This document shows, in pieces, positions 48,357 to 53,164 of a stretch of DNA of 64,000 nucleotides. The notes below the pieces were generated by a model. That model worked only from the letters and a program-made list of their open reading frames with translations. It did not search any database and was not told the origin of the DNA. The first letter of the stretch is position 1; every line of letters starts with the position of its first letter. Both the position numbers and the translations under genes were made by a program. Origin of the DNA: Wickerhamiella versatilis (taxonomy: Eukaryota); NCBI GenBank assembly GCA_030867685.1, contig JAQOWU010000007.1, positions 930,001 through 994,000 of the forward strand. Direction: 5' to 3'.

Positions 48357-49526
48357 ATGACGACAATGACCGTTCGCCGCAGCTTGCGTTACCATAGTAG
48401 TGCTCAGGACTCTCGAACAGTAGAGTTCGAGATTAGCCCCGATTATGAACTTGGTGATGTGATAGGGGAGGGAGCATATGGTGTCGTAGCCAGTGGTATT
48501 CATGTTCCTTCAGGCACTCGTGTTGCTGTTAAAAGAATACATCCTTTTGAGCGAGCTATGTTTTGCCTGAGAACTCTCCGAGAAATCAAGCTTCTACGCC
48601 ATTTTCGTAACGAGAATATCATCTCAATATTGGACATTCAGCGTCCAGGTTCTGTTGATCAAATGAATGACGTATACCTTATCCAAGAACTGATGGATAC
48701 TGATCTATCTAGAGTCATTCGCTCACAGTCTTTGACCGATGACCACTGTCAATATTTCACATACCAGCTCTTACGAGCACTGAAGGCACTGCATTCGGCA
48801 GATGTTCTTCATCGTGACTTGAAGCCTGGAAACCTCTTGATAAATACGAATTGTGATCTCAAACTGTGTGATTTTGGTCTTGCAAGGTCTGCATTTCCCC
48901 AGGCTTCGAGTCAAGACGCCAATGTTGGATTTATGACAGAATATGTCGCTACGAGATGGTACAGAGCACCTGAAATTATGCTTACGTTCCAGCATTACAC
49001 AAAAGCTATCGATATGTGGTCTGTCGGCTGTATTTTGGCAGAAATGTTAGGGGGTGTTCCACTGTTTCCTGGTAAGGACTACCGTGAGCAGCTCAATCTC
49101 ATCCTTGAGGTTGTAGGTACGCCTACTAACGCAGACTACTATAGCATCAAGTCAAAAAGGGCTCGACAGTACTTAATGAGCTTACCGCCTCGCAAACCCC
49201 AAAGTTTCAAAGCATTATATCCCAAAGCGAATCCACTTGCGCTTGACCTTCTTTCCAAACTCCTCACATTCAATCCTGCCCAGAGGCTTACTGTGGAGCA
49301 GGCATTGCAGCATCCTTATATGGCAGCCTATCATGACCCAGCTGATGAACCAGAAGCTGCTCCTCTTCCGCAGAATTTCTTTGACTTCGAAAGCGAAGGG
49401 GAACTGCCATTATCCGAAATGCGCAGACTTGTGTATGAGGAGATTAATAGAGAACCTACGGAACCGCAAAGCTCACCCCAGCCTTCGGTACCACCTCATA
49501 TACAGGTCCCATTAACGCAAGCTTAA
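48357..49526 (+). CDS. Fus3/Kss1-type MAP kinase
   Basis: GEGAYGVV, FCLRTLREIKLL, HRDLKP, activation loop MTEYVATRWYRAPE, TFQHYTKAID. Confidence 0.93.
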   Translation: MTTMTVRRSLRYHSSAQDSRTVEFEISPDYELGDVIGEGAYGVVASGIHVPSGTRVAVKRIHPFERAMFCLRTLREIKLLRHFRNENIISILDIQRPGSVDQMNDVYLIQELMDTDLSRVIRSQSLTDDHCQYFTYQLLRALKALHSADVLHRDLKPGNLLINTNCDLKLCDFGLARSAFPQASSQDANVGFMTEYVATRWYRAPEIMLTFQHYTKAIDMWSVGCILAEMLGGVPLFPGKDYREQLNLILEVVGTPTNADYYSIKSKRARQYLMSLPPRKPQSFKALYPKANPLALDLLSKLLTFNPAQRLTVEQALQHPYMAAYHDPADEPEAAPLPQNFFDFESEGELPLSEMRRLVYEEINREPTEPQSSPQPSVPPHIQVPLTQA

Positions 49527-49695
49527 TTGCATTCCTACATCCAGCATGTCGATTAACTGCACGTAAATTCTTTCAATAAAATAATTTAAGAAACCCTGCA
49601 GCTAAAATAGTACTTATAAAGCATATGAAATTGTGTCATGGAATTATTGGTTTGCGCACCCGTCGTTTCATAGCAGCTCATCAAATTTAAAGAAG

Positions 49696-50472
49696 CTATT
49701 GCTTCCTATCCGCGATAATTTTATCTGCGAGTTTCAGGAATGCATCTTCTATGACAGGATCTCCATTATCCATGCCTCTTGCAATCTCAGGACGCAGAGG
49801 CAACGATTCTAATTTCGAGATACCCAATTTGTCGCTACAATCGTCATCGCCAAAAATTCGACTTCGTGTGTGACAACATGGACAGTCAAAATACGCCATG
49901 TTCTCAACCACACCCAGAACAGGGACATCTACACTACGGAACAAGTCAGCTCCCCGTGCTACATCGATGAGTGCTATATCTTGAGGCGTCGTTACCATTA
50001 CTGCACCACTGATGTGAAGTTGTTGACAAAGTGTCAGCTGCACATCACCAGTGCCAGGTGGCATATCAACTATAAGGTAGTCAAGCATACCCCAGTCCAC
50101 TTCAAATAGCAATTGCTGCAGCGCCTTTTGTATCAACAGCCCGCGCCAAGATAAGGATTTCCCTTTAGGAATCAGGAAACCCATGGACATAGCCTTAACC
50201 CCAAGGTTCTGCAATGGAACCAAGCGACCATCGGAGGTTAGTTTAGGCTCGGCAGCGTTTTCGAGTCCAAGCATCTTTGGAATAGAAGGGCCAAAGAGAT
50301 CAGCATCGAGTATGCCTGTGGCATACCCCTTTTTATACATGGCTAATGCTAACCCCCCTGCTACTGTTGACTTTCCGACACCACCTTTAGCAGAAGAAAC
50401 CAAAATGATCTTGTTCACATTGGGGATATATCTTTTCTGTGGAACCCCAGCACCAGCTCTTCTTCTGAGCCC
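49696..50472 (-). CDS. IND1: Ind1/NUBPL mitochondrial Fe-S carrier for complex I (exon 2)
   Basis: VSSAKGGVGKST, GILDADLFGPSIP, MSMGFL, WRGL, DMPPGTGDVQLT, ENMAYFDCPCC; no ATG before the P-loop, so an upstream exon is required. Confidence 0.9.
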   Translation of the reverse strand, partial: GLRRRAGAGVPQKRYIPNVNKIILVSSAKGGVGKSTVAGGLALAMYKKGYATGILDADLFGPSIPKMLGLENAAEPKLTSDGRLVPLQNLGVKAMSMGFLIPKGKSLSWRGLLIQKALQQLLFEVDWGMLDYLIVDMPPGTGDVQLTLCQQLHISGAVMVTTPQDIALIDVARGADLFRSVDVPVLGVVENMAYFDCPCCHTRSRIFGDDDCSDKLGISKLESLPLRPEIARGMDNGDPVIEDAFLKLADKIIADRKQ

Positions 50473-50521
50473 CTACGTTAGCAAGCCTTCTCTATAGACA
50501 AAATTTTGTTTATTTACCTAC
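50473..50521 (-). other. 49-nt spliceosomal intron joining the AIM41 frame to IND1
   Basis: TTG|GTAGGT...GCTAAC-G-TAG|GGG; phase 0; splicing restores the Ind1-type HSNPL|GL motif. Confidence 0.8.
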
Positions 50522-51040
50522 CAATGGATTGGAATGTGTAGAATAGGATCTGGTCTGCTGCATATTTTTGATGACAGCAACCACACTTTTTTTGGGGGCA
50601 AACCACTCCTTCTCAACATCTGGAAGGTTTGCCATAAGCTGCTTGAATGGAACATTCTTCCCCTGCGAAGCAAGATATTCATCGACCTTGGACTTTATCT
50701 GTTCAGCACTTGCCACGGGTATTTGTGATTGCAGCTTTTCTAAAACACTGATTTCAGCCTCTTCACCTTCAGCCAGATCAACACGACTACCTTTCCTGTA
50801 TTCTTCAGCAGATTCCTTGCGCTTTTTTCTAAGCCCGTCTACAACGGAATAGAGGTTAAGGTCCGTCGTGCAAGAATTCGGCTTGGAAATGTTGGCATTG
50901 GTGACAGCAGCCATAACACTTCGAAGAGTGTTTTTAGTGGTAGAGTCCTTTGCCCTCATCGCTGTTTTTAGGCCTTCACGAATACTTGCCATCGATGGCG
51001 GCTCTACAGCTGCCGCTAGGCGAAGGAGCGTCGGTCTCAT
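50510..51040 (-). CDS. AIM41: Mitochondrial GatB/YqeY-domain protein Aim41 (stop codon lies inside the intron)
   Basis: Presequence MRPTLLRL; LKTAMRAKD...NTLRSV, KKRKESAEEY....R.DLA..E..EI..L. Confidence 0.85.
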   Translation of the reverse strand: MRPTLLRLAAAVEPPSMASIREGLKTAMRAKDSTTKNTLRSVMAAVTNANISKPNSCTTDLNLYSVVDGLRKKRKESAEEYRKGSRVDLAEGEEAEISVLEKLQSQIPVASAEQIKSKVDEYLASQGKNVPFKQLMANLPDVEKEWFAPKKSVVAVIKNMQQTRSYSTHSNPLVGK

Positions 51041-51244
51041 GACTAACCTATGTTACTGGTTCGGCGGAGGGTTCTTTTCGTTGTTAAAAAAAAAGAATAT
51101 AGTAAGATTTAAAAAGTATTAAAAAAATTGACTATGATCGTGAGCTCTATATAGCGGTAATATTCTACATCACGTGTAGAGTGGTGTTGAATCAATGCAT
51201 GCTTTTTCTCTACGTTTACGAGGTCCTACGGATTTGCTTTTCTA

Positions 51245-51457
51245 TCATGTATTCAAATTACAAAGCCCTGAAAGCTTTGAAAACTCGTCATCTAGCCGTA
51301 AAAGGTCATCAAAGAACACATCAATTTCGTCCTCTCTCTTTTTATTGTTGATAACTTTGATGTCCTCATTTTGTTGTAACAAAGGACTGTTTTGAGTAAT
51401 GAGGCGGCTAAAAAGGGTCGAAGCTCTTAAAGGATTGGTAAAGATTCGGTCTGCCAT
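51245..51457 (-). CDS. Possible small protein
   Basis: 70-aa ATG ORF in an otherwise empty gap; amphipathic EIDVFFDDLL; no family recognised. Confidence 0.3.
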   Translation of the reverse strand: MADRIFTNPLRASTLFSRLITQNSPLLQQNEDIKVINNKKREDEIDVFFDDLLRLDDEFSKLSGLCNLNT

Positions 51458-51829: not shown

Positions 51830-53164
51830 ATGCCAACTATTTACGCAACAGCAACTCCTGCGGGACGTTCGGCTGTGGCAATGGTACGGATTAGTGGCCC
51901 AAGCACGCGTAGTATTCTAGAAAGCATGCTAGGCAAAGTGAAAGTACCGACTTCACATAGAGCCCGGCTTGCCACACTCTATTCGCCTCTCACAAGACAA
52001 GTTTTGGACCAAGCACTAGTGTTGTATTTTCAAGCTCCTAAGTCCTACACCGGTGAGGATACAGCGGAGTTACATTTACATGGCTCTCCTGCAGTGTCAA
52101 GAGCTGTGATGAAAGCAATTGCCAGTACACGGCATGCAAGATACGCCGAGCCAGGTGAGTTTACACGACGTGCATACAGGAATGGCAAGCTCGATCTCGC
52201 GCAAGTTGAAGGAATTAGGGATCTAATTGCTGCAGATACTGAAATTCAGAGGCAAACTGCGGCTAGTGCAGCCTCAGGAAAACTTTCCCAATTATATGAG
52301 GGATGGCGCCATCAAATAGTGAGGTGCGCTGGGCTTCTTACTGCATGGATAGACTTTGGAGAAGACAATGAACTCGGGTCAGAAGTACTTGTCAAAGTTC
52401 AGAGAGAAATAACCCAAATCTATTCAGAGGTTCGTAGGCATACGGATAATATATGTTCCGAGCTAGTACGGACTGGAGTACGATTAGCTTTTCTTGGTGA
52501 GCCCAATGCTGGCAAATCTAGTCTCACTAACTTGCTAGTGAAACGAACTGCATCGATTGTCAGCGATATCCCTGGTACCACACGTGATGCTATTGAGGTA
52601 GACCTGGACATTAATGGCTACAAAGTAAAGCTAGGTGACACTGCTGGAGTTCGTAGCACGGAGGACAAAATTGAACGTCTAGGGATTGAGCGAACTTGTC
52701 AAGTTCTTGACGAGGCTCATTTGGTTTTAGCGATATCACCTGCAGGGTCACCTCGAAGTCGTGATGTGATGGACACAGCTAAACGGCTCGAAGATATAGG
52801 AAAACGCATAATATGGATTGAATCCAAAGCAGATTTGGCTCAACCTGAAGGATGGGGATTGCCAGTATCCACAGAGTCTGGTATTGGCGTTCCAGACCTT
52901 CTCCAGTTAATTTCCCATGAATGCGACTCATTAACTCATCTTTCTCATGATACAGTTGGGGCTTCAGAGCGAGCTCGTAATTTGTTAGAGGAACAGGTCT
53001 TACCAGGGCTGAAGACAGGTCTTGATCTCATAGACTTTGATGTGGTTCTTGCCAGCGCCGAACTTCAAGCGGCTGTTAATGGCATTGGTCGAATCACTGG
53101 ACGTGAAATTGGCATAAATGAAGTGTTAGATGTCGTTTTTGGCGACTTCTGTGTTGGAAAGTAG
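51830..53164 (+). CDS. MSS1: tRNA-modification GTPase MnmE/GTPBP3
   Basis: TIYA.ATP.GRSAVA.VRISG, PKSYTGED..ELH.HG, GEPNAGKSSL, PGTTRD, DTAGVR, C-terminal FCVGK. Confidence 0.95.
   Translation: MPTIYATATPAGRSAVAMVRISGPSTRSILESMLGKVKVPTSHRARLATLYSPLTRQVLDQALVLYFQAPKSYTGEDTAELHLHGSPAVSRAVMKAIASTRHARYAEPGEFTRRAYRNGKLDLAQVEGIRDLIAADTEIQRQTAASAASGKLSQLYEGWRHQIVRCAGLLTAWIDFGEDNELGSEVLVKVQREITQIYSEVRRHTDNICSELVRTGVRLAFLGEPNAGKSSLTNLLVKRTASIVSDIPGTTRDAIEVDLDINGYKVKLGDTAGVRSTEDKIERLGIERTCQVLDEAHLVLAISPAGSPRSRDVMDTAKRLEDIGKRIIWIESKADLAQPEGWGLPVSTESGIGVPDLLQLISHECDSLTHLSHDTVGASERARNLLEEQVLPGLKTGLDLIDFDVVLASAELQAAVNGIGRITGREIGINEVLDVVFGDFCVGK

Follow-up and report, generated by a model that had tools for sequence, protein, structure and literature searches.

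The window analysed here is a stretch of 64,000 nucleotides (nt) from the yeast Wickerhamiella versatilis, and all coordinates are positions within it. The unit described in this study lies entirely on the minus strand and consists of two open reading frames (ORFs) separated by a short intron (Table 1). The first ORF, AIM41 (51040..50510), encodes 176 amino acids (aa) with a YqeY domain (Pfam PF09424, 1e-19), while the second, IND1, comprises 258 codons and a stop (49698-49696) and encodes an NUBPL-type ParA domain (PF10609, 5.1e-85) at residues 18-244. Ind1 is an iron-sulphur (Fe-S) assembly factor of complex I, and we know of no function assigned to Aim41 in Saccharomyces cerevisiae. A preliminary description, made from the letters of the window, had stated that the IND1 frame has no ATG before its P-loop and is closed upstream by a TAG that is itself a 3' splice site, that a GTAGGT donor sits in the last codons of AIM41 with the AIM41 stop inside a 49-nt intron, and that splicing gives an in-frame protein of 431 aa; our re-reading of the sequence agrees on all of these. 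The first in-frame ATG of the unspliced IND1 frame, at 50340, is past the P-loop, the donor stands immediately 3' of the Leu173 codon (50524-50522), and the CTAAC element is separated from the TAG acceptor by one base. The TAA stop of AIM41 is found 9 nt into the donor element, where it overlaps an AATAAA hexamer, and removal of the intron joins both frames into a coding sequence of 1296 nt or 431 codons, with the exon junction at residues 173/174. The sequence observation, a start-less IND1 joined to AIM41 by a 49-nt intron, is confirmed.

Three raw-read RNA sequencing runs labelled with this species, of which X11 belongs to one study and both X14 and X15 to a second, were mapped to positions 49500-51300 with a 3% reporting threshold (1218, 1977 and 1503 reads respectively, all at least 95% alike), and a contig set (X1) was added which was taken as RNA by software guess only. 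In all three runs and both studies junction reads skip exactly 49 bases (50472|50522), with GT..AG on the minus strand (CT..AC on the plus strand), and this skip was the sole joint among those listed at the 3% threshold. The junction that had been predicted at 50522/50472 is represented by 39 reads in X11, 21 in X14 and 11 in X15 (28, 14 and 7 distinct starts), with six further short-overhang loose ends reading into the other exon in X15, and is present in two strain backgrounds; the 49-nt splice junction is real. Mean depth over AIM41 (50537-51024) was 198, 220 and 111 in X11, X14 and X15, against 88, 75 and 88 over IND1 (49744-50475), with approximately 94, 111 and 78 in the intron bin (50476-50536) and 88, 80 and 83 in the first exon-2 bin. 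By arithmetic from these depths, the spliced share of the RNA entering exon 2 is approximately 44% in X11, 26% in X14 and 13% in X15, and that of all transcripts from the unit approximately 10-20%.

Table 1. Features of the AIM41-IND1 unit in the Wickerhamiella versatilis window
Feature	Position	Strand	Basis
Transcript 5'-end cluster, 0-14 nt upstream of the Aim41 ATG	51040..51054	-	Reads with adapter-like loose ends
Candidate Aim41 presequence, residues 1-16 (short, unstructured, basic)	50993..51040	-	Predicted model; basic extensions of relatives
Aim41/YqeY folded domain, residues 17-162	50555..50992	-	Pfam, AlphaFold2 model, Foldseek, profile match
Linker/tail, residues 163-173: R164-S-Y-S-T168 (50551-50537), H169-S-N-P-L173	50522..50554	-	Conservation; coil with low model confidence
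Intron (49 nt): GTAGGT 50521-50516, AATAAA 50514-50509, TAA 50512-50510, CTAAC 50481-50477, TAG 50475-50473	50473..50521	-	Sequence and RNA reads
Ind1/NUBPL exon 2: starts GLRRR; Walker A KGGVGKS 50388-50368; CPCC 49884-49873	49696..50472	-	Pfam, alignment
3' untranslated region of the long transcript, 3' end at approximately 49556-49620	49556..49695	-	Read-direction asymmetry, read-begin pile-ups, X1 contig end

The preliminary description had also suggested that intron retention yields Aim41 alone, and at the RNA level both isoforms exist, one spliced and the other either retaining the intron or truncated at its 3' end. Just upstream of the intron, X14 reads are skewed in direction (200 vs 59 at 50537-50597) in the same way as at the true 3' end of the unit (68 vs 11 at 49622-49682), which suggests a class of RNAs whose 3' ends lie within or close to the intron, past the AATAAA. 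The unspliced RNA would then be of two kinds, one ending in or near the intron and one reading through with the intron retained, and we suspect intronic polyadenylation at the AATAAA overlapping the Aim41 stop; no poly(A)-tailed loose ends near the intron were among the rows listed for X11, X14 and X15. RNA depth halves at this hexamer (50509-50514, minus strand), with a read-direction skew like that of a 3' end, and in the X11 strain an A>C change at 50513 breaks the hexamer.

At the other end of the unit, reads of X14 and X15 ending at 51040, 51044, 51049, 51051, 51053 and 51054 carry a common loose end, which we take to be the reverse complement of a template-switching adapter, and on this reading the 5' ends at 51040-51054 are cap-proximal. 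X14 contains 124 such tagged 5' ends (40+48+12+7+6+11) and X15 contains 57 (22+27+8), all six positions are an A on the minus strand, and RNA depth is approximately zero above 51086. Near the 3' end of IND1 there are read-begin pile-ups at 49601-49613 and a read-direction asymmetry at 49622-49682, and an X1 contig of 1490 nt runs unbroken and unspliced from 51041 to 49556, with ends that coincide with those of the transcript. The RNA data fit one transcription unit with alternative outcomes.

The main alternative in the preliminary description was a shorter IND1 transcript starting at an internal ATG at 50563, which would make the genes overlap in frame. This ATG is indeed present in the Aim41 frame, but its identity needed correction, as it is Met160 of Aim41. 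Ind1 could then be made from its own start within the Aim41 frame, at Met160 or at Met136, with the shared frame being incidental: the sequence Met160-Q-Q-T-R-S-Y-S-T followed by GLRRR is basic and free of acidic residues, Met136 is invariant in the relatives discussed below, and the lower depth over IND1 than over AIM41 could also result from a second promoter. Such a start would also be favoured by two signals of X15 alone, a pile-up of 13 read beginnings at 50544 and a weak three-read loose end at 50687, which may reflect either minor 5' ends inside AIM41 or artefacts of fragmentation. No tagged 5' ends of a size comparable to the cluster at 51040-51054 were among the rows listed inside AIM41, where the sole other loose ends listed were junction overhangs and the three-read row at 50687 (0.5 agreement); for X14, approximately 40 internal tagged ends would be expected by depth scaling if all exon-2 RNA had its own start, against none listed. 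On the full-length RNA nine ATGs come before the one at 50563, four of these in other frames, and make leaky scanning unlikely. The comparison with relatives below bears further on this alternative.

Exon 2 was used for a protein search in which 8000 candidates were scored and the best 120 listed, 119 of them relatives other than the window's own protein. The deviant Walker A motif and the CPCC motif are both kept in the window, and the corresponding columns (K29-S35, C197 and C200) are invariant in 32 aligned Ind1 proteins. In 83 of the 119 best-listed relatives the P-loop is preceded by H-x-N-P-[LFIM]-G-[LI], nearly always in the form HENPLGLP(K/R) right after a presequence, and an Arg is located at position -10 from the motif His in 54 of the 81 relatives with enough upstream sequence. 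An Arg at -10 is the pattern of a two-step processing signal, which the Ind1 relatives match. In the window the five codons leading up to the donor (exon 1) encode HSNPL and the five that follow the acceptor (exon 2) encode GLRRR, so that the junction reads HSNPL|GLRRR, and hence the N-terminus typical of the family exists only in the spliced frame. The H-x-N-P-L-G-L-like motif named for fungal Ind1 in the preliminary description thus spans the junction and is rebuilt by splicing.

Every public model of the closest Ind1 relatives is a fragment of 232-265 aa. P0002 (relatives are designated by their search handles), which is 80% identical, begins MLTQ|GLRRR, and P0003 (61%) begins MLLQLLTINQ|GLRRR; these starts can be read as read-throughs of CTAAC.CAG and of CTACTAAC...CAG, with an acceptor at the codon boundary used in the window. 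A further public Ind1 model, P0112 (Aureobasidium-named), has 16 extra codons (VSNGST...KSQ) between HENPL and GLPRSG that resemble an unremoved 48-nt intron at the same boundary. Judged by its letters this model may be mis-spliced, and it hints at an intron position that existed before the fusion arose.

The state of exon 2 also bears on whether the splice is unproductive noise, with IND1 decaying or silent in this lineage, as its missing ATG and the minority status of the spliced form might suggest. All 258 codons of exon 2 are intact and include every invariant Ind1 residue, Walker A and CxxC among them, and the protein combines its high-scoring PF10609 match with 80% identity to that of a relative. 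Strain differences tell the same: 40 were listed, with a further 30 beyond the listing, and the 31 of the 40 within 49699-51040 were classified, and among these listed differences exon 2 has 17 synonymous and 3 non-synonymous changes, AIM41 has 7 and 1, and the 49-nt intron has 3, none of them in splice signals. Both ORFs are under purifying selection between strains. With the junction found in two strain backgrounds and the Aim41 tail kept across eight clusters of relatives (see below), a decaying IND1 is barely credible.

A word-indexed search gave one close Aim41 relative, P0122, which is 84% identical and in which the last 17 residues (MQQTRSYSTHSNPLVGK) are unchanged. An exhaustive HMMER search with Aim41 gave 2693 matches at E<=0.001, 32 of them at <=1e-10, and 15 of the top 18 matches (P0134 was dropped as N-terminally short) were aligned together with P0121 and P0122. 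Eight of these 17 relatives end right after the domain, while nine (P0121-P0123 and P0126-P0131, representing eight 50%-identity clusters and 36-84% identical to the window protein) have a tail past the YqeY domain. In these nine the tail has a fixed order: R-x-[YF]-S-T, then 0-30 residues, then H-[ESA]-N-P-[LF]-V, with a stop 1-5 codons further on; P0127 has the variant SKNTLV. R164, S167, T168, N171 and V174 are invariant in all nine, V174 corresponds to a GT codon, and the residue following it is always G, S, C or R, compatible with a G at donor position +5. The length of the linker varies from 5 to approximately 35 residues with the motif kept, and a motif scan of all stored proteins from the Aim41 search did not find H-x-N-P-[LFIM] outside the tail-bearing lineages. 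Judged from these proteins, several related yeasts appear to keep the fused arrangement. The longest contig is 80604 for both P0122 (Aim41) and P0002 (Ind1), and P0127 (Aim41) and P0110 (Ind1) are each on a single contig of 11967, which suggests that the AIM41 and IND1 genes share a contig in two relative species, without implying adjacency. A metagenome scan with a three-sequence alignment gave four distant YqeY loci (30-42% identity), none of which carried IND1, and was uninformative.

With the tails in hand, an Ind1 start inside AIM41 can be weighed further. At the Met160 column a Met is found in three of the nine tail-bearing proteins and in one tail-less protein, and four of the nine lack a Met anywhere from the last helix to HxNPL. 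Tail-less Aim41 proteins have Met136 just as invariantly, and it is thus a residue of the fold. All nine tails are in frame with Aim41 and without a stop for up to approximately 40 codons, which would be needless if IND1 had an independent first exon. The start at 50563 offered in the preliminary description is weakened, its Met not being conserved, and overlapping genes with an incidentally shared frame are distinctly improbable.

The tail resembles the end of the presequence of stand-alone Ind1 proteins: a Tortispora-named Ind1 reads ...RRFSTRIVLRSHENPLGI, compared with ...RKFSTYSRVLSHENPLV in P0130, and has RRFST...HENPLGI within its own presequence. P0129 has RRYST in its own N-terminal signal and REYST in the tail. 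In P0126 and P0128 the linker is longer and contains R-x-[YF]-S-[TK] twice, immediately behind the Aim41 domain and again 11 residues ahead of HENP; such a double motif would allow two cuts releasing a spacer peptide.

The AlphaFold2 model of Aim41 (mean predicted local distance difference test score, pLDDT, of 83.4) is helical from 17 to 162, with residues 1-16 and 163-176 as coil of low confidence, so the tail is predicted to lie outside the Aim41 fold. Residues 1-9 have a pLDDT below 50, and the basic N-terminal extensions of relatives vary in length before a conserved EPPxM. Residues 146-228 of the fusion, its longest stretch free of acidic residues (83 residues), extend across the junction, and the 25-residue windows with the highest net charge (+6, no D or E) begin at 163-175. 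A complex prediction of Aim41 17-163 with Ind1 12-258 scored 0.01, which gave no verdict and was used neither way.

These features also bear on the fate of the fusion protein, as the spliced mRNA could instead give a stable two-domain Aim41-Ind1 that is not cut, for instance with Ind1 tethered to an Aim41 module that binds complex I. The same RNA and conservation evidence would be accounted for, cleavage itself is a prediction, and a tether to such a module would be functionally plausible. At the boundary of the domains, however, the invariant R-x-[YF]-S-T matches the end of the presequence of stand-alone Ind1 (RRFST, P0048) and also the Aim41 N-terminal signal of P0129 (RRYST), and so fits a processing site better than a passive linker. 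Stand-alone Ind1 proteins have HENPLGL right after the predicted processing point, with the Arg at -10 in 54 of 81, and in the tail-bearing proteins the motif stays in place although the linker changes several-fold in length. We consider an uncut fusion unlikely.

A Foldseek search of the Protein Data Bank (PDB) with the Aim41 model gave chain 1 of 9ihq as top match (E 4.2e-6, template modelling scores 0.65/0.68, 27% identity), followed by the bacterial YqeY structures 8xjg, 8xje and 1ng6 (E 1e-4 to 7e-4), and the profile of the Aim41 alignment matched 9ihq_1/9ihr with E 5.1e-41, covering 11-184 of 190 residues. The entries are of Pichia pastoris complex I, and in them this chain bears the name 'Altered inheritance of mitochondria protein 41, mitochondrial'. 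For this complex a previously unknown subunit of the GatB/YqeY superfamily, named NUQM and acting as an interdomain bridge, has been described in PMC12487887, the text of which contains neither 'Aim41' nor 'Ind1'. From the match between the chain description and that of the paper, 9ihq chain 1 is probably NUQM. With an Aim41 homologue as NUQM and Ind1 as assembly factor, the fusion brings together a protein homologous to a subunit of complex I and an assembly factor of the same complex; binding to complex I is known only for the P. pastoris homologue, and is a possibility for the window's Aim41.

Starting from the observed anatomy, splicing, 5' ends and tail conservation, we propose, with a probability of roughly 70%, that AIM41-IND1 is a single unit giving Aim41 alone when the intron is kept or used for 3' end formation, and an Aim41-Ind1 precursor cut by mitochondrial processing peptidase (MPP) and Icp55 when it is spliced. 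One promoter would drive the whole unit, with transcription beginning at 51040-51054 (minus strand). If the intron is kept, or if the RNA ends near the AATAAA, translation would stop at the TAA within the intron to give Aim41 alone (176 aa), and if the intron is removed the Aim41 frame would run on into IND1 to give the composite precursor of 431 aa. The ancestral first exon of Ind1, from the end of the presequence with R-x-[YF]-S-T through HxNPL, would now form the C-terminal tail of the Aim41 ORF. Import of the precursor would use the N-terminal signal of Aim41 and the basic, acid-free linker, and cleavage by MPP with Icp55 trimming at R164-S-Y|S-T would release Aim41 and a mature Ind1 starting just before HSNPLGL. 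Splicing efficiency would set the ratio of Aim41 to Ind1, and synthesis and import of two complex I proteins would be coupled. Translation of the fusion, its import, MPP cleavage and the functional coupling are proposed by analogy with Arg5,6, Atp25 and Rsm22-Cox11. The interpretation given in the preliminary description is supported in every part that could be tested.

Several points weigh against this proposal. The fusion product is known here from RNA and sequence alone, most RNA across the intron is unspliced (compare the intron-bin depths with the junction read counts above), short reads cannot tie the junction to a particular 5' end, and beyond the rows considered, which for the loose ends are the best-supported ones, there are four more loose-end rows and eight more read begin/end rows. 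The relatives were compared as proteins, and adjacency of IND1 and AIM41 in them rests on matching contig figures in two cases. P0126 has a Met within its longer linker and P0003 begins with an M ahead of the acceptor-like stretch, and some lineages, represented by these two, might use a separate Ind1 start. Internal MPP cleavage needs a strong N-terminal presequence according to the available text of PMC8734313, and the Aim41 presequence comprises only approximately 16 unstructured residues with two Arg; the presequence-likeness of the linker is a crude composition count. Finally, approximately 70% of tagged 5' ends (88/124 in X14, 49/57 in X15) lie at 51040, where the ATG itself begins, or at 51044, leaving leaders of 0 or 4 nt, and the next ATG in any frame is that of the in-frame Met17 (50992), a residue shared by all nine tail-bearing Aim41 proteins. 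With such short leaders AUG1 may often be bypassed for Met17, giving a product without the N-terminal signal, and dual localisation of Aim41 or of the fusion via skipping of AUG1 is possible.

The unit is flanked by a protein kinase gene (Pkinase, 3.6e-62) at 48357-49526 on the plus strand, the 3' end of which converges on that of IND1 with continuous RNA depth over 49500-49620, and by a gene for an MnmE/TrmE-type GTPase (TrmE_N, 1.3e-39) at 51830-53164 on the plus strand, which is divergent from AIM41. A motif scan of the window for introns gave 14 candidates, with other very short (45-75 nt) GTxxGT...CTAAC...AG elements in which the branch site lies close to the acceptor, for example at 53866-53822, 39528-39475, 42124-42067 and 1633-1559 (these four on the minus strand).

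Composite precursors that are cut internally by MPP at junctions resembling internal mitochondrial targeting signals (iMTS) comprise Arg5,6 and Atp25 of S. cerevisiae and Rsm22-Cox11 and Etp1 of Schizosaccharomyces pombe in the available text of PMC8734313. As in these four, two unrelated mature mitochondrial proteins share one ORF in AIM41-IND1, the junction is presequence-like with an R-containing MPP motif, and the second partner lacks its own targeting signal. Unlike the composites covered by that text, the fusion exists only in the spliced mRNA, with the stop codon of the first protein inside the joining intron; the gene also makes the first protein alone, and cleavage is something that we infer. 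With stand-alone fungal Ind1 (Meyerozyma, Babjeviella, Ascoidea and Tortispora-named proteins) the window protein shares 50-56% identity, the Walker A and CxxC motifs and the HENPLGL motif, but whereas these have their own Met and a presequence of 20-50 residues, the presequence in the window is replaced by the whole Aim41 ORF, with its last 5-10 residues remaining.

A further comparison is offered by sdh2-rps14 of the grasses, for which Kubo 1999 and Figueroa 1999 are reportedly the sources. There, one nuclear transcript is alternatively spliced so that the N-terminal part of one mitochondrial protein, with its targeting signal, also serves another, which, as far as described in the accessible part of PMC1543663, makes it the closest analogue in logic, with alternative splicing lending the targeting part. 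In the grasses rps14 lies inside an intron of sdh2 and only the N-terminus of SDH2 is shared, whereas in AIM41-IND1 the complete folded Aim41 is carried along, one 49-nt intron is either kept or removed, and the host is a yeast. The NUQM of P. pastoris (9IHQ/9IHR) has the YqeY helical architecture and is the best structural and profile match of the window's Aim41, but its 190 aa match through residue 184 at 27% identity with no HxNPL tail in the alignment, and it is thus not fused to IND1 there.

The preliminary description knew of no earlier report of this pairing, and our literature search likewise found no paper pairing Aim41 or YqeY with Ind1; the query for YqeY and NUBPL gave one unrelated proteome paper. 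Protein searches with Aim41 and with exon 2 gave no deposited model with both domains among the matches listed. None of the longer Aim41-matching proteins (309-2000 aa) was scored among the 2085 candidates, which is weak evidence against a deposited fused model, and none of the long YqeY matches P0229, P0143, P0227, P0142, P0189, P0205 and P0251 has a ParA domain.

AIM41-IND1 is a new variant of composite mitochondrial precursors. It explains why IND1 is start-less in these yeasts and hence truncated or missed by gene callers, and to the few composite precursors known from the available text of PMC8734313 it adds two new features, a fusion conditional on splicing and two partners that are both tied to complex I. 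It also provides a gene-fusion argument linking Aim41 to complex I biogenesis, independent of the 2025 NUQM structure as presented in the available text of PMC12487887. As a tentative extension, against which the odds lean slightly, Ind1 may exist in a whole clade of complex I yeasts solely as a passenger at the C-terminus of Aim41/NUQM, entering mitochondria in one chain with it and split off at the conserved MPP/Icp55 site. The weak conserved intron, with its retention or internal polyadenylation ending the message behind Aim41, would then be a rheostat for the ratio of Ind1 to Aim41. If true, this would be independent genetic evidence for Aim41 as a complex I protein well beyond Pichia pastoris, and would suggest that Aim41 acts at the same assembly step as Ind1. 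The locus lends itself to the study of how internal sites are recognised by MPP, and of how the ratio between two mitochondrial proteins is adjusted through intron retention.

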